The notes beneath the pieces were generated by a model. It saw nothing but the letters and a program-made list of their open reading frames with translations. It was not told the DNA's origin and made no database searches. 46,791 bases of DNA, taken from contig LT649278.1 in the NCBI GenBank assembly GCA_900128395.1, positions 1 through 46,791 of the forward strand. The letters run 5' to 3'. This document shows, piece after piece, positions 15,331 to 45,848 of this stretch. Every line of letters begins with the position of its first letter. Position 1 is the first letter of the stretch. The DNA is from Stramenopiles sp. TOSAG23-2. Taxonomy: Eukaryota. The position numbers were made by a program, and so were the translations under genes.

Positions 15331-15840
15331 TGTTTTCTATTTTTTTACTTCCAATACCTTCTTCTTCCAATTTTCGTTGTAACTATTCTTAAAAACAATT
15401 CTTAATGCTATATACTAATGTAATGGATACTGTAATAAACTGGGTTGGTGTATTTTTTTGATTTGTATTTTGTTCTATTTGCAATGTGATATATAATCAC
15501 GTACAATGTGCCAATCACAATATATATTTCAACAACAAAACAAGAAGCGTATGATTGGCGCAATGTATTTTAGCAGGTAAATAGTAGCTACCTGATAGTC
15601 ATATTTTTGCCGTAGCTCGCTTAGCTACGTGATACTAGAACAAAAAAAAAAAACAAGGCGGGGCACGGCACGCAGACTATTGTATGAATACTACCTTAAT
15701 ATATAAATATAATTACCATCATACGGTGCTTATTATTTTATTGTGTTTTAAGGAATATCAAATCACCCCACAATCGTATCATCAATTTCTCACAGCCACA
15801 CACGTCTTTTGATAAATTTATACCTTTCGATTTGTGCATT

Positions 15841-16091
15841 CCTAAGTATTACCCGATATAATTTTTAGTGTGCCGGCCAGTTGTAAATTTTCGGTACAAA
15901 TTTGTTGGTATACTTAAACACTATATTTAACTATCAAACACACAAATTAATCCAAAACTCAACCACTCGAAAACCTGAAAACCGATTAATTTGTGTATTT
16001 GATAGGTAATATAGTGTTTAAGTATAATAAAAAATTTGTACCGAAAATTTACGACTGGCCGGCACAGTAAAAATTATATCGGGTAATTAGG
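15841..16091. mobile_element. Palindromic MITE-like element (about 104-bp imperfect inverted arms, 31-bp spacer)
   Basis: 15849-15952 is the imperfect reverse complement of 15984-16086. The core 15868-16067 (GTGTGCCGGCCAG...CTGGCCGGCACAG) is flanked by TA on both sides. A homologous partial copy lies at 43762-43873. Confidence 0.7.
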
Positions 16092-16116
16092 GCATTTGGG
16101 ATTTCATCAAAATCAG

Positions 16117-16475
16117 TTGTTAACAAGGTTATTTTTTATACCTATATATAATACTAGATATAAGTATGATTATTTCATATACTGATAGATTCAACCTGGT
16201 AATCCCATGATGTATATTGACAAGATGTGCAGATGATTTGTTAACAAGGTTATTTCCTTTCCTATATACAATACTAGATATAAGTATGATTATTTCATAT
16301 ACTGATAGATTCAACCTGGTAATCCCATGATGTATATTGACAAGATGTGCAGATGATTTGTTAACAAGGTTATTTCCTTTCCTATATACAATACTAGATA
16401 TAAGTATGATTATTTCATATACTGATAGATTCAACCTGGTAATCCCATGATGTATTGACAAGATGTGCAGATGAT
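16117..16475. repeat. Tandem repeat, about 3 x 120 bp, upstream of RPB1
   Basis: The unit starting TTGTTAACAAGGTT recurs at 16117, 16238 and 16358. Copies are nearly identical. Confidence 0.95.
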
Positions 16476-16835
16476 GACGACGACGAAGGACAAAAAAATC
16501 AAAAAAAACAACAACAAAAAAATGAATAAATGGATGTCACGACTATAAAATATATATACTACTATGTAGATATATGTTGAATACAAACATATAATACCAA
16601 AGATAGACACATTCCCAATACACGATACATCAACACAGACAGATTGGAGTATTTATTATAACATTTTATTTATTATATTTTGGAACATATATTTTTGGTT
16701 TGATACGTCTATATATTTATATACCGTACATAAAATATACTTCATAGTTCTTTTTACAATTGAAAGAAAAATAGTATACTTGATATTTAAAGACAAATTA
16801 TAATAATTATAATAATAAAATAAAATACAACAATT

Positions 16836-19800
16836 ATGTCTGCTGAATTTGCTTATTCCAGAGCACCATTGCGACGTATTGAAGAATTGCAATTTTCAGT
16901 TTTCAGTCCAGAGGATATTCGTGCACAATCAGTTACGCAAGAAGCATTTATCAATGGTAAGCGTATTAAAGAAGGTATTAATACTTCAAGATGTCACGAT
17001 GAGAGTGGTAATCCAATATATGGTGGTTTAAATGATCCAAGGATGGGATATAAATTTGATGACAAGGAATGTGTAGGTTACTTTGGTCATATTGAACTTG
17101 CACGCCCTATGTTTCACATGGGATATATTGATAAGGTTCGTATGGTGTTGCAATGTGTGTGTTTTGACTGCGGTACGCTTTTAATCGATGAGAAAGATCC
17201 AACATATCATCGTATTATGAACGAACATAAGCGTTCGGAAGATCGTTTAAAGGAGTTTACTAAAATATGCCGTGGCAAAAAGAAGTGTTATGGTGGTGAC
17301 GATTTGAATGAGGACATGGAGGAAACTGGTGGCAAAGAAGTGATCCGTCGTGGTTGTGGTGCAAAACAACCAAAAATTTCGAAACCTGCCCACTCTCAAC
17401 TTTCATTTGAATATGATAATGAGGAAGATCTTGAAAATGATTTAGGTGCTGGTGGTCGGGATAGGAAACAAATGTTACAAGCTTCTCATGTTAACAATAT
17501 TTTTAAACAAATATCTGAAAAAGACATGAGAGCACTTGGTTTCCATCCAAAATGGTCCAGGCCTGAATGGCTTTTATGGCATGTCATGCCTGTGCCACCA
17601 CCACATGTTAGGCCATCCGTGCAATTTGGTTCCGGTGTTAGTGATGATGATTTAACACATAAATATATTGGTATTGTAAAAGCAAATATTGCGTTGAAAA
17701 ATAGTATTCAAAATGAAGATCCTGCGTTCACTACGAATCAATATGCCGAGTTGTTGCAATATCATTGCTCGACATTGATTAACAATGAATTGGCAGGGCA
17801 ACAGCAAGATAAATATAGGAACGGCAAGCCGTTGAAAACGATACGTCAACGTTTAGTTGGAAAAGAAGGTCGAGTACGTGGTAATTTAATGGGAAAGCGT
17901 TGTGATTTCACATCGAGAACGGTTATTACTGCCGATCCAATTTTATCTATTCAACAAGTTGGCGTTCCAAGGAGTATTGCATCCACGTTAACTGTTCGAG
18001 AACGCGTAACGCATTTTAACCAAGAGCGTTTGCATGAATTGATTGCACGTGGGCCGGATCGCCACCCAGGAGCAAATTATATCATACGCGACGATGGTGG
18101 AGTTATCGATTTAAAATTTGTGCGTAATAAAAATGATTTGCAACTTGTAGTTGGATGGATCGTAGAAAGGCATTTAAATGATGGTGATGTTGTATTATTC
18201 AATCGTCAGCCATCTTTGCACAAAATGTCTATCATGGCGCATTATGCAAAGGTACTTGATTGGAGTACATTTCGTTTGAATTTATCATGTACGCCACCAT
18301 ACAATGCCGATTTCGATGGGGATGAAATGAATCTTCACGTTCCACAATCATTAGAAGCAAGAGCGGAGGCGGAGAAAATGATGCTTACCCCATACATGAT
18401 TGTTTCCCCACAAAGTAATGCTCCGGTGATGAAAATTGTACAAGATTCCTTGTTAGGTGCATCATTGATTACCAAACGTGACATTTTTATCGATCGTGAA
18501 TTGATGATGCATTTGTTGATGTGGGTGAAAAATTTCAATGGGAAAATGCCAGTGCCTGCAATTATGGTGCCTCGTAAAAACGTGGAAGACGACTACACAG
18601 ACGGTTATGATAGTTATTGGACTGGGAAACAATTGTATTCGATGATATTGCCAAATATCAATATGCAAAAAAATTCTGGTGGCGCACCGGATGGGCAAGG
18701 AATCACAGACCTTTCTGTGACAGATTCATATGTTTACATCGAAAATGGTACGTTGCATTGTGGAAATATAGATAAAAAAAGTTTAGGAGCAGGAACAAAT
18801 GCGTTAATTCATATTACATGGTTAGAGGTTGGACCAATGGCAGCACGTGATTTAATTGATAATACGCAATTGGTCATCAATGCATGGTTGATCCATTGGG
18901 GCTTTAGTATTGGTGTTGGAGATACGGTGGCTGATGAAGCAACTATGTTTGAGATTGCTCGTATCATTGATGAGAAAAAGGATAAAGTGGCAGAGCTTGT
19001 AAAGCAAGGCCAGAACAATGAATTAGAATCGCAACCAGGTCGTACGATGATACAAGTTTTTGAAGATTCCGTGAATCGTGCATTAAATGCAGCACGTAAT
19101 GATTCCGGAAAAAGAGCATCAGACTCTTTACCAAAAGATAATAGTTTTAAAATTACCGTCACATCCGGTAGTAAAGGTAGTGCAAATAATATTGCGCAGA
19201 TTTTAGCATGCGTAGGACAACAAAATGTTGAAGGGAAACGAATTAAAAACGGATTCCAATATCGAACGTTGCCACACTTTGCAAAAGATGATTTAGGTCC
19301 TGAATCTCGAGGTTTTGTTGAAAATTCATATTTGAAAGGGTTAACACCTGCTGAATTTTACTTCCATGCAATGAGTGGAAGGGAAGGTATTATTGATACT
19401 GCATGTAAAACTGCAGAGACAGGATATATCCAACGCCGTTTAGTAAAAGCCATGGAAACCATCATGGTCCGTTACGATGGGACCGTGCGTAATGCAGAAG
19501 GTCATATTGTTCAATTTTTATACGGTGAGGATGGCATGGCTGGTGAATTTGTTGAGCAGCAAAAAATGTTTACTATGAAAATGAGCCATAAAGCTATGGC
19601 AAGGAAATTCAAATTTAGTGATTACAAACCTGGTGAAGAAACTGTTAATGGCAAAACGCATCGCTTCATGTCGACCCAAGCAATTGAAGATGTTGAACGC
19701 GATGTGGACACGAAAAGGTATTTGAGGGAAGAATACCAACAATTATTAGTGGATCAAGAGACATTAGCAGAAATTGGGGTATGGCGTAAAGCAATTCTCT

Positions 19801-22266
19801 CGTCGCCGGACGTTGCTGATACCAGAATGCCAGTACCGGTTAACATGGCACGCTTAATCAATAGAGCAAAATTGCAATTTAGAAATGTAAATAACGTTTC
19901 AGAGCTCCATCCAAAAGAAGTCGTGAAAGATGTATTAGAATTATTCGAACGATTAATCATCGTGCCTGGAAGTGACAAATTATCCATCGAGGCACAGCAT
20001 AATAGTACGTTATTATTTAAAATATTGACTAGAATGTATTTAGCAAGTAAAGTAGTCATAAAAGAACATCGTTTAACATTGGCTGCTTGGAAATTTATTA
20101 TAGGTGAAATTGAATCCAAGTTTAACCGTGCGCGTTCAAACCCTGGTGAAGTTTGTGGTGTATTAGCAGCCCAGTCCATTGGTGAGCCTGCTACACAGAT
20201 GACACTGAACACTTTCCACAATGCTGGTATTGCATCGAAAAATGTGACTCTTGGGGTACCTCGTTTGAAGGAAGTTATCAATGTCAGTAAACGTATTAAA
20301 ACGCCTGGTGTTACTATTTATTTAAAGGAGGAGGATGAAGATGGCAAGAAAATTAGCTCTGTTCAAGAACGCGCGACGCAAGTACAGGCATCTTTAGCAT
20401 TTACAACCTTACGTGATATTACGTTATCGACTTCCATTATCTACGATCCAGTAGTTTTTGAGGAGGAAGATGGATTTAAAAAAATGGTATCATGTATTGA
20501 AGAACACAATGGTATGTTGGAAACGTGGTCTGAGGCACCAGATGATTGGCTTGATATGGAACGTGTAGAAGAAAGAGGTTATCTTTCGCCATGGGTGCTA
20601 CGGTTTGAATTAAATCAAGCTGCCATGTCTGGTAAACATTTAACCATGGCTGATGTAAAAGAAAAATTAATGGCTGAATTTGGTGAAATGTTTTTGATCA
20701 TTGTTGAAGAGTCATTAGATAGGAAGCAACTTGCGCTTATACGTCTTGTTCAAGAAGAGTATATGGACGGTGGTGGTGATGAGCAGAATTATGGTGATGA
20801 TGATGACGGCGGTAATAAAGAAGATTTTGCAGTAGATCACGATGAGTTGTTGAAACAAATCGAGTCGGAGTTATTAGACGAGGTTCAATTGTGCGGAATC
20901 TCTGGTATTGACAAAGTATACACACGTTTGGAGAAGAATGGTAAAACATATACCCATGGCAGTGGCTTTACTGAACGTCAAGAGTGGATTTTAGAGACGG
21001 ATGGAAGCAATTTATTAGAAGTATTAAGTCATCCGGATGTTGATCATACTCGAACTATTAGTAACGACGTATGCGAAATTGGAGACGTATTAGGTATCGA
21101 AGCTTGTCGTGGTTCGATATTAAAAGAAATTCAAACCATTCTTTCATCGTATGGTTTATATGTTAATTATCGACATTTAGCAATTTTAGTTGATGCTATG
21201 ACATCACGTGGGCATTTAATGTCTATTACTAGAAATGGAATCAATCGCGTTGATCACGGTGTATGGCAAAGAGCAACTTTCGAAGAAACCGTTGAAATTT
21301 TATTTGATGCTGCTGCCATGGCTGAAAGTAATACATTAAAGGGTGTCTCTGAAAACATTTTAATGGGACAACAATGTCCATTTGGTACTGGTATGTTTGA
21401 TTTAATATTAGATGAAAAAATGTTAATGGAAACTATTGAAGTACGTGGTGATGAAAATGTCAAGAAACCTAGCGCCGGCTATGGGAACGATTCATCATCG
21501 ACAACAGATAGTGATATAGATCCTGAGGAACCATGGATCTTAGATGATTCTGGCCAAACACCAAAAGTTAATATTGGTAGCATGACACCAATAATGGGTG
21601 GTGTAGGCAACCAAAGCACGCCGACCACCAATGGTGGCTTTGCTACACCAAAAATGACGGATAATGATAGTGGTGTAGAATGGAGCCCAGAACCAATGTT
21701 GGATACGAAATCACCTATGGTGTTCCAAGGATATGGAACGGAAGGAGGGATGAGTGGCAGCGGAAGTAGCGGGAATGAAGATTCGCCAATATATTCACCT
21801 GGTAGTGATGATGGTGGAGATAATTCTCCTGTATATAGTCCGACGAGCCCTCAATATAGTCCGACGAGCCCTCAATATAGTCCGACATCACCGGCTTATT
21901 CGCCAACTAGCCCAGCCGTATGTAAAAATCGATCACATGAAAAAATCAAAACATCCCAACAGTATTCGCCAACTAGTCCAGCTGTAGGTAGAACTCAATC
22001 AACACATTCGCATGAGAAAATCAAATCAAAATCTAACATAAAATTTTTTATTACATTCCAACAGTATTCGCCAACTAGTCCAGCTGTAGGTAGAACTCAA
22101 TTAACACATTCGCATGAGAAAATCAAATCAAAATCTAACATAAAATTTTTTATTACACCCCCAATAGTATTCGCCAACTAGCCCCGCATATTCCAGCGAA
22201 GATGGAAGCCCGCAGTTGGAAGTCACGCTTTCGCCAAATGTGGATAACAATAACAACAATAACTAA
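16836..22266 (+). CDS. RPB1: DNA-directed RNA polymerase II largest subunit; exons 16836-21917, 21963-21983, 22065-22085, 22168-22266
   Basis: Catalytic NADFDGDEMN, GKEGRVRGNLMGKR, FNRQPSLHKMS, TAETGYIQRRLVK, EPATQMTLNTFH and a CTD of YSPTSP(Q/A) heptads. Splicing three GT-AG introns gives seven tandem heptads, then YSSEDGSPQLEVTLSPNVDNNNNN and stop at 22266. Confidence 0.97.
21918..21962 (+). other. Spliceosomal intron 1 in RPB1 CTD (45 nt, phase 0)
   Basis: GTATGT...CCCAACAG placed exactly between two heptad codon blocks. It is in frame and has no obvious CTAAC branch motif, so retention cannot be excluded. Confidence 0.7.
21984..22064 (+). other. Spliceosomal intron 2 in RPB1 CTD (81 nt, phase 0)
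   Basis: GTAGGT donor, TCTAAC branch-like motif, TTCCAACAG acceptor, located between two 21-nt YSPTSPA exons. Confidence 0.85.
22086..22167 (+). other. Spliceosomal intron 3 in RPB1 CTD (82 nt, phase 0)
   Basis: GTAGGT donor, TCTAAC, CCCCAATAG acceptor. It is a near copy of intron 2 and must be removed to restore the heptad frame. Confidence 0.9.
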
Positions 22267-22823
22267 ATCTATGGCACGTATATAGAATTTGAATGGTATT
22301 ATCATGAAATCAATTGACCTTTGCATGCAATAACATTTTTAATCTTCTGTGAACATTTATGATATATTTATATGACAGCGCGTGGAAACTTTATTTAAAT
22401 TAAATTATTATTATTTATTTTTATATTACCTGGATTACCAAGTACAATTATTTTGTCTTCATCAAAAAACTTATAAATAATATTTTAAGGTGCAGGGTGA
22501 TTTGTTAAATTAATAAGATATTACTAATTGAACTAATATAATATTCTAGAAATATTATGTCCAACTCCCAAATTATTAATAAGCACACTATAATAGATAT
22601 TATATTATCATATGCATATGAATGTTGCACATATTTTAATATGATGTGCATATTATTATTTATTACTATAAAAAAATACTATACACAAGATTAATACCAA
22701 GTAATAGAATAAAGTTGAAAAGAACTACAATTGTACTATGTATATAACAATAATAAGAATAATAACAGCAACATATACATATATAGCATACCAATACTAA
22801 CAACAACAATAATACTACAAAAG

Positions 22824-24398
22824 ATGACATCGATACAAACGAAAAGTGAAGCGACTAATGGCAATATTCCAATAAACCAATCAGGGTATAATGCAGATTT
22901 TTTATCTCAAGCAATAGATATGCCAGTTAAATCATTTGAAGTACAAAATTTTGGTGCTGAAGGTGCAGGTGGAGGATTCGCAGGCGGTATTGTGTGCCGT
23001 TTTAAAAATATTGAATATGAAGGTAACAGTGATGAGGGCAATAGTAGACCGAAAACATTAATTTTAAAATGGTTAAATATGGCTAACGGTCCTACCAGTG
23101 GAGGGGCGCCCGGAATACCTTTTATTTCAAGACTTTTATTATTTTCGATATGTAAAATGGAGATGAATACTGAAGAAGTTCAAAGAAGAGAATATGATTT
23201 TTTCAATGGGAAATCATTGTTACAAGAAAAAATTGCTAATGCAGGGGTAAAATTACCAGATTGCTATGCATGCGATATGCTTGATTATGGTGATCCAAAT
23301 CTTTGTTGTATGGTCTGGTGCAATAAAAAAACAAATATGCGCAGGTATATGTTTTTCGGTGATATTACAGATGAAATGTAAGTATACAGTGTCTATAATA
23401 TAAAATAACATTTTTCCGTTGGCTGTGTCGTCTCTCTACTAAATTACTAACTATAATGGCACTAGTAGATAAAAAATGTCCTCTCTAACAATACCTCATC
23501 ACCATTTGTTCATATATGTGTATATATATATTATTATAATTAATACATACATGCTTCATTATATTATATAAAAAACACTATATTTTATTCCAGGGCTGAT
23601 AAATACGAAGTCACAAGTATGAACATTACAGAAAAACATATTGAAATTGCTATTAAAAATATGGCAAAAATACATGCCGTAAATTGGGGGAAAAAGAAAA
23701 ATTCAAAATTATTAAAAACAATTAAAAATACGTATTGGTATCCATGTGTCTTTGGTTGGACAAAAGTTTTAAATGATATGAAAAAAAAATATTCATTTCA
23801 GAAATATATTAATGAATATGGTAGTGAACGCACATATTTAGCAGAGAATAAAATATCTGAACCATTGGTACGATTGGAAACATTATATCGTGATAAAATT
23901 TCCACAATCCTTGAAAATCTTGATGATAAACAGACTATATTACATGGTGATTATCATTGTGGAAATATTATGTTTTTAAAAGATGTTGATGATGCGATCA
24001 TATTAGATTGGCAAATGTATGGCCATGGACATTTTGCATATGAATTTGTATATTTTGTTTATTCAGCATTAGCAAATGCACCATATGTAGATAGAACACG
24101 AACATTTAATTATTTAAAATTATATTATGATGAATTAATCCAATTGGATGATGGTACAATTAACAAAGAATTGACATGGGAAGAAGCCAAAAGAGTCTTT
24201 GTCTGTGTATGTTTGGAGTTGTTTGTATGGGTTATAGCAATTTATAGGGCTGATATTAAGAAACGAAATGTTCGAGATGCTGAAAACAAACGTGATAAAC
24301 GATTTGTTGAAGTAAATGGTGTATTAGATAAACGTGATGAAAATTTTACATTATTTGTTGTCGATTTGATGAATAATTTGAAGGAATATGGGTTGTAA
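22824..24398 (+). CDS. Ecdysteroid-kinase-like / choline-kinase-like phosphotransferase (APH/EcKL fold); exons 22824-23377 and 23594-24398
   Basis: Motifs TLILK, REYDFF, LPDCY, MAKIHA, TILHGDYHCGNIMF and ILDWQ. The two ORFs join in frame across a GTAAGT...TTCCAG intron (AT|G = Met). First ATG is at 22824. Confidence 0.85.
23378..23593 (+). other. Spliceosomal intron (216 nt, phase 2)
   Basis: GTAAGT at 23378 and TTTTATTCCAG ending at 23593. Removal fuses ORFs 22731-23381 and 23619-24398 in frame. Confidence 0.9.
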
Positions 24399-28577: not shown

Positions 28578-31405
28578 TTATAAATTTTGAAATTCATCAT
28601 GTGTAAGCATTTCAATAGCTTCCTCATCTGCTTCCTTCTCTTCCCCATCTTCAAATTTATCATTAGCAGCTTTTTCATACCATTCTTTTGCTTGTTTTAA
28701 ATCTTTTTTGATACCATAACCATAATGATACATATTGCCAAGTAAACGTTGAACTTCAGATAAATTTTCATAATAACGTTTTTCCCACTTCTTTACTAAT
28801 TGTGAAAATAATTCAAATGCCTTTTTATAATTTTTTCTTACACCTTCACCATTTTTATACATTATACCTAGTAAATGTTGAGCATTGGCGTCTGTACGAT
28901 AATGGCCTTCATGAGACCCTACTGCTTTTTTGAAATATTCAAATGCTTTTTTATCATCTTTTATAACACCTTCACCATTTCTATACATTTTACCAAGCTG
29001 AATTTGACTCCAACGGATGTAAATTTTATCTTTGCCTATTTCAATTGCTTTGGTGTAATATTCAAAGGCTTTAGTATAATTTTGTGGCATTTCATCTCTT
29101 TCATAGTACAATTCAGCTAGCAAATACTCATATTTACCACTCTTGCAGTGATCTGCTGCTTTTTGATACCATTCTTCTACTTTTTCATAATCTTTTGTAA
29201 CATATTGACCATGTAGATACATCTCGCCAATATAACACATACTACTTGAATCTTTACAATGCTGTGCTGATTTTGTGAAAAATTCAAAAGCAACTTTATA
29301 ATTTATGGTACACCCAGCCATTCCATAAAGATAATACCAACCAATTCTAGACAGTAAGCCAGAATTTTGCTCTGTTGCTTTTGTCAGCCATTCCAATGCT
29401 TTTTTTTCATCTTTTGGAAAACTATCACCACAACCTTTTTCATACATCTCACCAATTGCTTGGGAACTCTCAGCATATCCTTGTTCAGATGCTTTTTTAT
29501 ACCATTCCAAAGCTTTATTATAATTCTTTGTGATAAAATCTATCCCACCACAAAAATACAGAGCAATTGCATATTGACCTTGCGCAAATCCTTGTTCCGC
29601 AGATTTTTTATACCATTCGAATGCTTTTTTATCATCTTTTGCAACACTGTCTCCATACATACGAGGACTATATGCTTCACCAAGATAATATTGACCAATT
29701 GCTGATCCTTGTTTTGCTGATTTCATCAACAAATCAAATGCTTTCTTATTGTCTTGTTTTACACCATGACCATCACAATAGCATCTACCAAGCCAACATT
29801 CACCATATGCATCTCCTTGTTCTGCTGATTTACTAAAATAATCAAATGCTTTTTTATCATTATCTTTATATCCGAAACCTTTTAAAGGCTCGATTTGAAT
29901 ATAATGCAAAAAACCAAGTATATTTTGTGATAAACTATCATTTTTATTATTTTCATAATATTTAGTAATAATATTATATCCTTTTTCAGCATCTTTAATA
30001 AAATTACCAAATCCAAAAACATGACATAGACCAATTGCAAGATCAAATCCACTATATGCAGATATTTCAATCATTGTTTGATATTGAAGTGGTATAAATA
30101 TCTGTGAATCGTAGTCATATTTGCGAATTAAATGAAGAAATCCATTCATCATCAATTCACGTGTACCAACAGATAAATCAATACTAACATTATTATTATT
30201 ATTATCAATCTTATTTTTACGACGTTTTTTTCTTCTGGATGTAGATGATGATGAAGAAGATGAGCTGGTAGTACTACTATTGCTGCTGCCATCAGCATTA
30301 TTGTTTATCTCATCCACACCTTTTCGTTTTTTACCTGTTACATTATTGCTATTACTAATGTCTTTACCAACAGCGTCCTTCACATTCTTAATTTTCAATT
30401 CAATAATTTCATTCATTTTTTTCAATATTTCAAGTTTTTGTTTATTTATTAATAATGATTTCTTCACTACTTCAAAATTCAGTTTTGCTTCATCATATGC
30501 TTTTTCTGATTGAATATATTCATTTTTCAATTTTACGCTATTGAAATGCTTACACATGATGAATTTCAAAATTTATATTCAAAATTCAGTTTTGCTTCAT
30601 CATATGCTTTTTCTGATTGAATATATTCATTTTTCAATTTTACGCTATTTTCCTCCTCTGATTTTATCATTAAAGATTGACAATCTTTGATAGCATTATA
30701 TTTATTTAATTCATCAGCTTTTTTATTTAAGAAAAGTGCAATTTCAGATTCAAGGACACTAAACGATGATACTACCTCTGTAGTTAAAAGTGAATTAGAA
30801 TCAATGTACTTTTTCCATTTATTAATTTTTTCACTTGTCACTAAGACTTTTGGACTTGATTGTACAAGGTTTGCAATCTTTGATATGGTTTCAATCACAT
30901 TATTCGTTGTCTCTGATGTTAGCATTTCACCCTCAATCGTCCTCAACGCTTTATTGAAATCAATGCCATTTTTATTTTTTTGTTGCCACGATGATATCAT
31001 ACTTTTTACCATATGATTTGGTGTTAACATATGATTATTTAAAATAGCACCAGTTAAAGGAGATCTAACAGGTTGACCTTCTTTTGTTGCAATCCATTTT
31101 TCAATAGATTCACGCATATGATTTGGTGTTAACATATGATTATTTAAAATAGCACCAGTTAAAGGAGATCTAACAGGTTGACCTTCTTTTGTTGCAATCC
31201 ATTTTTCAATAGATTCACGTTCATATGTTTGCCCATCTGATGCTATAACAGGCTCTTTAAATATTTCACCACTAATTGAGCATATAAAATGTTCTGGTGT
31301 TGGCACTTGCATACCACCAGTATCTTGACTATTTGAAATTGACGTCGTCGCCGTGGTGGAATTCGTCGTCGTCGTTGTGGTTGTTGTTGTTGGCATCATC
31401 ATCAT
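28578..31405 (-). pseudogene. U-box + coiled-coil + SEL1-repeat protein, copy A; interrupted (ORFs 31405-30566 and 30569-28578)
   Basis: U-box (PEHFICSISGEIFKEPVIASDGQTYERESIEKW...SPLTG...LTPN) and many SEL1 repeats (LGxMYxxGxGVxxDxKKAFEYF). The frame is broken by a 107-bp insertion at 30543-30649, and there is an in-frame 105-bp duplication in the U-box. Could be an intact gene that was mis-assembled. Confidence 0.75.
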
Positions 31406-31950: not shown

Positions 31951-34679
31951 TTATAAATTTTGAAATTCATCATGTGTAAGCATTTCAATAGCTTCTTCAT
32001 CTGCTTTCTTCTCTTCCCCGTCTTCAAATTCATCATTAGCAGCTTTTTCATACCATTCTTTTGCCTTTTTTAAATCTTTTTTGATACCATAACCATAATG
32101 ATACATATTGCCAAGTAAACGTTGAACTTCAGATAAATTTTCATACTCGGAACCTTCACCTTCATCTACCGATTTTGTAAATAGTTCAAATGCCTTTTTT
32201 TTAAATCTTTTTTGATACCATAACCATAATGATACATATTGCCAAGTAAACGTTGAACTTCAGATAAATTTTCATACTCGGAACCTTCACCTTCATCTAC
32301 CGATTTTGTAAATAGTTCAAATGCCTTTTTGTTGTTTTTCCGCACTCCCTCACCATTTTTATACATTATACCTAGTAAATGTTTAGCTTCAAAAGATTCA
32401 TCATCTTCGTCATGTTCTAGTGCTTTTGTGAAATATTCAAATGCTTTTTTATCATCTTTTATGATACCTTCACCATTTCTATACATTATACCAAGCTGAA
32501 TTTGACTATAACAGATGTAATCTCCATTTTCAATTGCTTTGGTGTAATATTCAAATGCTTTAGCATAATTTTGTGGCATTTCATCTCCGTAATAGTACAA
32601 ATTTGCTAGCATATACTCATATTCACCACTCTTGCAGTGATCTGCTGCTTTTTGATACCATTCTTCTACTTTTTCATAATCTTTTGTAACATATTGACCA
32701 TGTAGATACATATCGCCAATATAATTCATACTACTTGAATCTTTACAATGCTGTGCTGATTTTGTGAAAAATTCAAAAGCAACTTTGTAATTTTTGGTAC
32801 ACCCATTACTTCCACGAAGATAACTCCAACCAATTTCAAACATTAATTTAGAATTTTGCTCTGTGGCTTTTGTCATCCATTCCAATGCTTTTTTTTCATC
32901 TTTTGGAAAACTATCACCACAACCTTTTCTGTACAACTCACCAATTATTTGGGAACTTCGAGCATATCCTTGTTCAGATGCTTTTTTATACCATTCCAAG
33001 GCTTTATTATAATTCTTTTTGATAAACCCACTTCCATAGCGAAAATACTGAGCAACTTCATATTGACCTTGCGCAAATCCCAGTTCTGCAGATTTTTTTA
33101 ACCATTCAAATGCTTTTTTTTCATCTTTCGCATCACCGTATCCATACCTATATGCATCACCAAGATAATATTGACCGATTGATGATCCTTGTTTTGCTGA
33201 TTTCATAAACAAACCAAATGCTTTCTTTTTGTCTTGTTTTACACCACATCCATAACAATAGCATATACCAAGCAAACATTCACCATATGCATCTCCTTGT
33301 TCCGCTGATTTACTAAAAAAATTAAATGCCGTTTTTTTATTATTTACGGTTTCGAAACCTTTTAAAGGCTCAATTTGAATATAATGCAAAAAACCAAGTA
33401 TATTTTGTGATAAACTATCATTTTTATTATTTTCATAATATTTAGTAATAATATTATATCCTTTTTCAGCATCTTTAATAAAATTACCAAATCCAAAAAT
33501 ATGACATACGCCAATTGCAAGATCAAATCCACTATATGCAGATATTTCAATCATAGTTTGATATTTAAGTGGTATAACAATCAGTGAATCGTAGTCATAG
33601 TCGGCGATTAAATGAAGAAATCCATTCATCATCAATTCACGTGCGCCAACAGATAAATCAACACTACTAACATTATTATTATTATTATCAGTCTTTTGCT
33701 TACGACGTTTTTTTCTTCTGGATGTAGATGATGATGAAGAAGACGAGCTAGTAGTACTACTATTGCTGCCATCAATATTGTTACCGTTTATCTCATCAAT
33801 ATTTTTACGTTTTTTTCCTGTTACATTATCGTTATTAATAATGTCTTTACCAACAGCGTCCACCACATTCTTAATTTTCAATTCAATATTTTCATTCATT
33901 TTTTTCAATATTTCAAGTTTTTTTTTATTTATTAATAATGATTTTTTCACATTTTCAAAATTCAGTTTTGCTTCATCATATGCTTTTTCTGATTGAATAT
34001 ATTCATTTTTCAATTTTACGCTATTCTCTTCCTCTGATTTTATCATTAAAGATTGACAATCTTTGATAGCATTATATTTATTCAATTCATCAGTTTTGTT
34101 GTTTAAGAAAAGTGCAATTTCAGATTCAAGAACACTAAACGATGATACTACCTCTGTAGTTAAAAGTGAATTAGAATCAATGTACTTTTTCCATTTATTA
34201 ATTTTTTCACTTGTCACTAAGACTTTTGGACTTGATTGTACAAGGTTTGCAATCTTTGATATTGTTTCAATCACATTATTCGTTGGCTCTGATGTTAGCA
34301 TTTCACCCTCAATCGTCCTCAACGCTTTATTGAAATCAATGCCATTTTTATTTTTTTGTTGCCACGATGATATCATACTTTTTACCATATGATTTGGTGT
34401 TAACATATGATTATTTAAAATAGCACCAGTTAAAGGAGATGTAACAGGTTGACCTTCTTTTGTTGCAATCCATTTTTCAATTGATTCACGTTCATATGTT
34501 TGCCCATCAGCTGCCATGACAGGATCTTTGAATATTTCACCACTAATTGAACATATAAAATGTTCTGGTGTTGGTATTTGCATACCACCAGTATCTTGAC
34601 TATTTGAAATTGACGTCGTCGTGGTGGTGGAATTCGTCGTCGTCGTCGTTGTTGTTGTTGTTGTTGGCATCATCATCAT
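31951..34679 (-). CDS. U-box + coiled-coil + SEL1-repeat protein, copy B; frameshifted near the 3' end by a 131-bp duplication
   Basis: 837-aa ORF 34679-32166 is clearly paralogous to copy A. Removing one copy of the duplication at about 32062-32330 restores ...KKDLKKAKEWYEKAANDEFEDGEEKKADEEAIEMLTHDEFQNL* ending at 31951, matching the C-terminus of copy A. Confidence 0.8.
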
Positions 34680-44515: not shown

Positions 44516-45848
44516 TCTCTAAACTCCAACCAAAATAAATATTACATTTACATGAAACGCTAGACCCAAAGTGAATTTTCATTCAAAAATGCACTTTTTT
44601 TGACACTTTTATTAAGGTTTTACAAGCCTATTCCATAGAAAGGGTACTTTGACATGCAATTGAAACGTCGTTAGTAAAGTAGGTTCCTGAAACTCAGTTG
44701 TCATCAACTTACTCTTAAGTTTGACTCTATACATGTTCTCTAAACTCCAACCAAAATAAATATTACATTTACATGAAACGCTAGACCCAAAGTGAATTTT
44801 CATTCAAAAATGCACTTTTTTTGACACTTTTATTAAGGTTTTACAAGCCTATTCCATAGTAAGGGTACTTTGACATGCAATTGAAACGTCGTTAGTAAAG
44901 TGTGTTACTGACACTCAGTTGTCATCAACTTACTCTTAGGTTTGGCTCTATACATGTAGAAATGAGAATCGAACCTACTTTTATATCAATATTTTCATTG
45001 ACTTGAGATATATTGTTTCGATTATACCCCATTTTGCAATGTATTTTCACATGCCTGAAAAAGGCCTAGAAATCCAGATTGATTTTCATTCACAACAATT
45101 TTAATGGGAGCTAGAAATCTTCATTTGGAACACGAAACATAAAAAATTTTGATAAAATGTCGTAGATACTCTTAGGTTTGGCTCTATACATGTAGAAATG
45201 AGAATCGAACCTACTTTTGTACTAATATTTTGATGGATTCGAGATATGTTGTGTCGATTATACCCCATTTTGCAATGCATTTGACCATGCTTGAAAAAGG
45301 CCTAAAAATCCAAACTGATTTTAAATCACATCAATTCTAAATGGAGCTAGAAATCTTCATTTTAAACACGAAACATAAAAAATTTTGATAAAATAACGTA
45401 GATTCTATATGATAGGTGATATATTTAACTTTTCTCCGAGAGTTTAGACGTACAATTATGTTTTTAAAGAAAAGTGCTGGAAAAAAAATTTTAATCGCAC
45501 GTTAGCATGGAGTTAGTATTAGAGCACTTTTGCATCGAAATGGTGAAAATCATGAAAGGTTGAAAACTTTCATTGAAGTTATTAATATTAGACTTTGAAA
45601 AAATTCATTTCGAACATGCAACATAAAAAATTTTGATTAAATATCGTAGATTCTATATGGAAGGTGATATATTTAACTTTTCTCCGAGCGTTTATAGGTA
45701 TAATTATGTTTTAAAAGAAAAGTGCTGAAAAAAAAAATTTAATCGCACGTTAGCATGGAGTTAGTATTAGAGCACTTTTGCATCGAAATGGTGAAAATCA
45801 TGAAAGGTTGAAAATTTTTATTGAAGTTATTAATATTAGACTTTGAAA
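44516..45848. repeat. Three consecutive interlocked tandem duplications (periods 221, 236 and 248 bp)
   Basis: A: 44516-44736 / 44737-44957. B: units starting at 44931 and 45167. C: 45372-45600 / 45620-45848. Junction sequences are each present three times. Confidence 0.92.

Follow-up and report, generated by a model that had tools for sequence, protein, structure and literature searches.

Tandem cassettes of one CTD heptad and one putative intron at the 3′ end of a stramenopile RPB1 gene

Near-identical short introns dispersed over many genes are the mark of introner elements, and under the duplicated AGGT model a new intron consists of duplicated exon sequence lying between a duplicated pair of splice-site motifs. 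Repetitive spider silk genes are built from modules far larger than the 21-nucleotide (nt) exons that concern us here. Exon–intron modules with near-identical introns are iterated in Nephila Flag and Argiope MaSp2 (PMC3563967), and local tandem or segmental duplication adds introns in place (PMC3265369, PMC4974935). In the largest RNA polymerase II (Pol II) subunit, the C-terminal domain (CTD) forms very regular YSPTSPA arrays in stramenopiles, with the much shorter array of Thalassiosira pseudonana as a precedent for short ones (PMC3646058), and in yeast, viability depends on having more than 8 repeats and normal growth on more than 12 (PMC5940151). Here, we describe the CTD-coding 3′ end of the gene for this subunit, RPB1, in a stretch of 46,791 nt from Stramenopiles sp. 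TOSAG23-2 (contig LT649278.1 of assembly GCA_900128395.1, forward strand), hereafter called the window. The array appears to be a short tandem series of cassettes, each comprising a 21-nt exon for one YSPTSPA heptad and a 70- to 82-nt, U2-type, phase-0 GT–AG intron. Such cassettes would derive from local tandem duplication (by unequal exchange or slippage) of a unit already containing an intron, their number would still differ between near-identical haplotypes (2 to 4 introns), and splicing would join the micro-exons into an uninterrupted, unusually short CTD of 4 to 7 canonical heptads followed by a conserved acidic tail.

The gene is RPB1. A plus-strand open reading frame (ORF) at 16836 to 22181 encodes 1,781 residues, and its portion from 16836 to 21917, which holds the catalytic core, the linker, and the first four CTD heptads, is continuous and intron-free, as a sequence-only reading of this DNA had remarked. 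Rpb1 domains 1 to 7 of Pfam (PF04997, PF00623, PF04983, PF05000, PF04998, PF04992, and PF04990) occur in canonical order in the window ORF, all far above the cut-off (E values of 1e-92 to 6e-20); the heptad-repeat family PF05001 gave no score on the unspliced window ORF, in which four YSPxSPx heptads are contiguous, and seven are contiguous after in silico splicing. The closest named RPB1 matches, at 46 to 49% identity, come from oomycetes and diatoms, which fits a stramenopile.

The leading heptads (21834 to 21917) read YSPTSPQ twice, in identical DNA, and then YSPTSPA twice. Beyond them lie three spacers, each beginning with GT, ending with AG, and placed precisely between Ala7 of one heptad and Tyr1 of the next, so that all three would be introns of phase 0. 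Spacer 1 (21918 to 21962; 45 nt; GTATGT..CAG) has neither a CTAAC motif nor a T-run; spacer 2 (21984 to 22064; 81 nt; GTAGGT..CAG) has a CTAAC whose putative branch A stands 28 nt from the 3′ end, as well as a run of six Ts; and spacer 3 (22086 to 22167; 82 nt; GTAGGT..TAG) has a CTAAC with its putative branch A 29 nt from the 3′ end. Between them stand two 21-nt micro-exons, at 21963 to 21983 and at 22065 to 22085, both of which read TATTCGCCAACTAGTCCAGCT and encode a single YSPTSPA. The last coding exon (22168 to 22266), supported by the alignment of its tail to a related protein and by the start of an RNA contig, translates to YSPTSPA YSSEDGSPQLEVTLSPNVDNNNNNN ahead of a TAA stop, that is, one heptad and the conserved acidic tail. 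The start of the 3′ untranslated region (22267 to 22356) belongs to the same RNA contig.

Reading and parsing the window bore out every coordinate in the sequence-only reading, including those of the two identical heptad exons. Its frame predictions also stand: spacers 1 and 2 are multiples of three without an in-frame stop, and the 82-nt spacer 3 causes a frameshift through which the unspliced ORF terminates at 22181 and loses the conserved tail. In the window, the tail is reached only when the spacers are removed. The same reading had counted only seven consensus heptads in the fully spliced product, a figure that holds for this assembly after in silico splicing but not as a fixed property, as related haplotypes give 4 or 5.

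Those haplotypes come from a metagenome scan in which the species-specific linker of RPB1 served as the query. Among the 80 loci recovered, only two, L001 and L002, are conspecific; both are genomic, and they share 96% protein identity and approximately 97.4% DNA identity with the window. Against the four leading heptads, the spacers of 45, 81, and 82 nt, and the two micro-exons of the window, L001 has a single leading heptad, spacers of 70, 72, 81, and 81 nt, and three micro-exons, and L002 has a single leading heptad, spacers of 70, 72, and 81 nt, and two micro-exons. Over 3,654 nt, L001 and L002 are 99.8% identical, yet they differ by exactly one 102-bp cassette. The architecture recurs in 11 ORF-called database proteins: of the 12 ORF-called members of the 90% cluster of P0122, 10 reach the CTD, and all 10 pass from 1 to 4 heptads into a spacer, as do the heptads of P0272, which belongs to another cluster. 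Across assemblies, the leading heptads number 1, 3, or 4 and the spacers number 2, 3, or 4. Because the arrangement is found again in L001, L002, and these 11 proteins, the cassette structure is not an artifact of one assembly.

The unit that varies is also the unit that repeats. Tandem Repeats Finder (TRF) reports a period of 102 bp at 21951 to 22181 (2.3 copies, 95% matches), a length that covers one exon and one intron, and the one-unit difference between L001 and L002 bears out the proposal that the CTD has expanded by heptad plus intron (about 102 bp). As had likewise been proposed, spacers 2 and 3 are near-identical (93%) and spacer 1 aligns as a shortened relative. Over the 10 DNA copies (3 in the window and 7 in L001 and L002), pairs of the same intron type are 91 to 98% identical and all copies are 75 to 98% alike; the first spacer of the window equals the 72-nt copy of L001 and L002 minus 27 nt and is the sole short copy of the 10. 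Two spacer motifs, of 23 nt and 25 nt, have two occurrences apiece in the window, where shuffles give an expectation of 0.00. The intron bodies are unlike heptad-coding or other RPB1 exon sequence, with only a 6-nt match, ATTCGC, found by eye. As for other candidate contents, a small RNA embedded in the introns was ruled out: Rfam gave no match to the spacers at E values up to 1, and their folds do not surpass those of shuffles.

Near-identity among introns is also what a mobile element of the introner type would leave behind if it had inserted repeatedly into the CTD, and other eukaryotes are known to carry introner-like elements (PMC4457414). However, the repeat period reported by TRF includes the exon, and neither the rest of the 46.8-kb window nor the flanks of L001 and L002 (two related loci of 6.4 kb each) contain a further copy of the spacer family, the dispersal expected of such an element thus being absent from these sequences. 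We regard repeated insertion as extremely improbable.

Duplication of cassettes also appears to be recent and confined to this lineage, as the relatives of the window protein indicate. P0256 and P0123 are both 86% identical to it (1,325 of 1,535 positions); P0123 carries 18 heptads without a spacer, arranged as 10 and 8 around one extra Val, and has the C terminus YSSEDASPQSDAASPQLEVTLSPNVILR. P0003, at 68% identity, likewise has an uninterrupted array. Uninterrupted arrays in relatives at both distances point to cassettes that are lineage-specific and young. The last exon of the window aligns to residues 718 to 749 of P0123 (23 of 32 identical); being conserved there, the tail is part of the protein, and its reading frame has to be that of the heptads. 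An observation of its own concerns the extra Val: at about residues 660 to 670, one unit of P0123 runs to eight residues (YSPTSPAV) and falls on the Ala7/Tyr1 junction at which the species of the window has introns. Those introns begin with GTA, a Val codon, and the extra residue could be either an intron footprint or a coincidence.

Taken together, comparative and signal evidence supports well the interpretation of the spacers as real phase-0 spliceosomal introns multiplied by cassette duplication, and we consider it probable. Every one of the 10 DNA copies has U2-type GT..AG borders at the Ala7/Tyr1 position, and removing them in silico yields uninterrupted heptads joined to the conserved tail in the window (seven heptads), L001 (five), and L002 (four). 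Nine of the copies contain a CTAAC ahead of a T-run, the putative branch A standing 28 to 29 nt from the 3′ end; the exception is the 45-nt spacer of the window. This motif resembles that of a validated intron of the same genome: the control intron at 23378 to 23465, in the gene downstream of RPB1, reads GTAAGT..TACTAAC..TAG and is spliced in an RNA contig of X13. (That downstream gene uses its one donor, at 23378, with two acceptors, ending the intron at 23465 or at 23593, and both joints are present in X13 RNA contigs.)

The contrary proposal is that the spacers are not spliced at all but are translated as inserts where they are in frame and truncate the CTD where they are not. Several observations lean that way and thereby count against intron removal. 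Frame 0, the frame continuing from the preceding heptad, is free of stops in 9 of the 10 spacer copies, and of the 20 readings in the other two frames, 19 contain 1 to 4 stops, frame 1 of the 45-nt copy containing none. In two database proteins, P0246 and P0249, the ORF passes through all of the spacers and reaches the true tail, so that translated spacers are possible there (an example of the peptide expected from a translated spacer is VGRTQSTHSHEK...). The first spacer of the window lacks a branch motif, and the donor of the second intron of L002 is GTATTT. A spliced array was seen in none of the 11 CTD-reaching ORF-called proteins, all of which apparently derive from genomic contigs; the tail region of P0249 found no match among cluster representatives of 177 to 566 amino acids (aa), a comparison confined to representatives; and shorter proteins searched for the C-terminal region yielded genomic read-through ORFs only. 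Finally, the RNA contigs, which break at the repeats, show no predicted junction, skipping, or retention, and no joint is listed for them within 21900 to 22170.

Set against these points are the losses that a lack of splicing would entail. In the window, L001, L002, and 5 of the 10 cluster members that reach the CTD, unspliced products lose the tail or stop after 1 to 4 heptads: the first spacer of L001 and L002 is 70 nt long, so that the unspliced protein would stop after a single heptad, and the five cluster members stop directly after their first spacer. Homologous spacers moreover differ in length by numbers that are not multiples of three, one pair being 81 and 82 nt long and another 69 nt (23 aa, in P0246) and 70 nt (L001 and L002), and such one-base differences argue against coding constraint. 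The copies are paralogues, so their open reading-through could be one inherited accident, though it leaves room for tolerated retention. Canonical donor, branch motif, and acceptor are all present, and yeast tolerates nonfunctional spacers only between diheptads (PMC5940151), a unit that would be broken by a spacer after each single heptad. We therefore hold the translation of unspliced spacers to be very unlikely.

RNA data, examined as assembled contigs with depths unsuited to copy number, bear on splicing in a more limited way. Contigs from three studies cover RPB1 up to 21857 to 21862, and the three long ones all end within the perfect 21-nt repeat. These contigs were presumably built from 31-letter words; the last unique word ends at 21862, so, by our reasoning, the assembly graph must branch there. 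The runs do not consist mainly of DNA, in that the intergenic bins at 15335 to 16668 are near-empty (depth of 0 to 0.31), and we read the contigs as transcripts. The share of window words, which is 0.62 to 0.67 in RNA runs and 0.65 to 0.94 in DNA runs, overlaps and does not discriminate between the two. Downstream of the array, record 5 of X11 (22168 to 22356; at a similar depth, 9.9 versus 11.3) begins exactly at 22168, the predicted 3′ splice site of intron 3. A branch in the graph at that position is expected if two sequences precede it, such as spliced and unspliced forms, and with a strain difference within the intron the contig would break at another position; the start of this contig is a weak to moderate hint of splicing and not proof. 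After 22356, the same record continues with 91 letters unlike the window, for which a strain difference, a chimera, or further processing are possible sources.

Beyond the removal of the spacers by the spliceosome, we infer two things: the spacers are for the most part removed constitutively, and the copy numbers in the assemblies lie near the true ones. The first of these statements meets a different proposal, already raised by the sequence-only reading: that the array serves regulation, with CTD length adjusted by skipped exons or retained introns and Pol II thereby coupled to splicing. The gene structure would permit it. With symmetric exons and phase-0 donors and acceptors throughout, the frame is kept whichever donor joins whichever acceptor, and the spacers are mostly open in frame 0. 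Intron 1 of the window may stay in the transcript, where it would contribute 15 in-frame residues; alternatively, since it has no branch motif of its own, its donor may pair with the next acceptor downstream and skip one micro-exon. Yet haplotypes differ freely in copy number, and variants that keep the frame occur alongside variants that break it, a picture that looks like neutral turnover and not like a tuned device. As an adaptation, the tuning of CTD length is hypothetical and, in our judgment, improbable. Hardly less doubtful is the broader idea that a variable cassette array leaves CTD length to be set by the performance of the spliceosome, with a direct loop between splicing and the CTD, which recruits splicing factors, retained introns serving as spacers, and the short CTD (4 to 7 heptads) as a genuine derived state.

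Whether the assembled copy numbers can be taken at face value is a separate question, and here the nature of the data tells against us: all counts of heptads and cassettes come from short-read assemblies. Such assemblies may have collapsed real cassettes, the true array being much longer and the CTD of normal length. The cassettes are 91 to 98% alike, the leading heptads contain a perfect repeat of 54 nt (21833 to 21886), and the assemblies disagree with one another in their counts of spacers and of leading heptads. The array of the 86% relative is also assembly-dependent, with 8, 18, or 18 or more heptads, and the 4 to 7 canonical heptads in the assemblies seen here, versus 18 in that relative, fall below the more than 8 repeats that yeast viability demands (PMC5940151). 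Elsewhere in the window, minus-strand ORFs contain two perfect (100%) two-copy tandem duplications, at 31010 to 31219 (unit of 105 bp) and at 32066 to 32330 (unit of 131 bp, not a multiple of three); these are possibly assembly artifacts and, as such, call for caution about all copy numbers in the window. On the other side, neither the window, L001, L002, nor any of the 11 proteins ever shows more than two copies per cassette type or more than two identical YSPTSPQ heptads, neighboring cassettes differ by distinguishing substitutions, and the assemblies are of several sources, presumably with different settings. On balance, we judge collapse of a much longer array to be unlikely and prefer a short array.

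Automatic annotation of this region deserves a separate remark. The EukProt model of this species, P0260, joins the first CTD donor (21918) to an acceptor in the next gene, producing a fusion of 2,084 aa; it thereby misses the micro-exons and the true tail, and CTD-length surveys that use such models can be wrong. Another oddity lies further upstream in RPB1, near 21066 (residue 1410), where the ORFs P0002, P0262, P0264, and P0271 end in ...HTRTIST and a second ORF begins with MTSRGHLM. Other near-identical strains or assemblies thus carry a frame interruption at this point; an extra intron there, as ORFs of the P0002 type would suggest, is absent from the window, L001, and L002.

The remainder of the window has approximately 32% G+C and consists mostly of long uninterrupted ORFs; it is AT-rich and intron-poor, and the sequencing runs that contain its DNA are marine. 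We take the source to be an uncultured marine eukaryote. A search of the entire window with a regular expression for intron-like patterns gave 68 matches, mostly due to chance, and was not used. It did return two near-identical 85-nt stretches of the form GTAAGT..TAG on the minus strand (44628 to 44712 and 44849 to 44933), which lie inside three adjacent two-copy tandem repeats at 44516 to 45848 (units of 221, 236, and 248 bp; 88 to 96% matches). Another tandem repeat, of a 120-bp unit in 3.0 copies (97%) at 16117 to 16475, lies approximately 360 bp 5′ of the RPB1 start codon at 16836 and has almost no RNA depth.

The possibility that similar CTD introns exist elsewhere, which the sequence-only reading had raised, was borne out among the other 78 loci of the metagenome scan, all checked for heptad-coding blocks. 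Most of them are contiguous arrays, but two unrelated metagenomic eukaryotes have introns at one fixed position of the heptad. In L042 (1 to 1058), four introns of 122 to 157 nt (GTGAG..CAG) all follow the second base of the Ser5 codon (phase 2), and in L056 (2590 to 4110), at least six introns of 136 to 197 nt all follow the first base of codon 7 (phase 1), with GC donors in five of six. As in the window, removing these introns in silico restores perfect heptad arrays. Unlike the window, both loci have several heptads per exon and introns that fall inside a codon and are longer (122 to 197 nt), L056 has GC donors, and TRF finds only a 21-nt period and no long-period repeat in either. Judging from these sequences, the two loci resemble diverged and older outcomes of the duplication of a heptad block together with its intron. 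Next to them, the species of the window is the extreme and youngest example of a broader pattern: each of its micro-exons holds one heptad, and its introns remain near-identical. Single-heptad exons and same-position CTD introns are not described in the literature searched, which includes passages of PMC3646058, PMC1326215, and PMC4362643, subscription papers and supplements being outside its scope.

If splicing is confirmed, the locus would be a very clean natural example of intron multiplication by tandem duplication, in a gene that is both essential and universally conserved, and it suggests how repeat-coding arrays in general could come to hold many introns of the same phase. It would also mean that a free-living eukaryote may have a CTD of only 4 to 7 canonical heptads, below the yeast viability minimum (PMC5940151).

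With respect to the canonical stramenopile CTD, the window shares the YSPTSPA consensus and the same Pfam core; its relatives have 18 or more contiguous heptads, in contrast with 4 to 7 here, most of them as single-heptad exons. Introners and the window both present near-identical short introns, with the difference that the copies of the window are strictly tandem and include the exon. The duplicated AGGT model differs in the source of the intron: in the window, exon and intron are duplicated as one unit, a process that presupposes a founding intron, and the intron bodies bear no resemblance to the exon sequence that this model would duplicate. The closest likeness is to Flag and MaSp2, in which a repetitive protein is likewise encoded by tandem exon-plus-intron modules that imply module duplication or homogenization (PMC3563967). 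The array of the window departs from those silk genes in that its module holds a single 21-nt heptad exon, its product is an essential housekeeping enzyme, and its modules number only 2 to 4 and vary between near-identical haplotypes.

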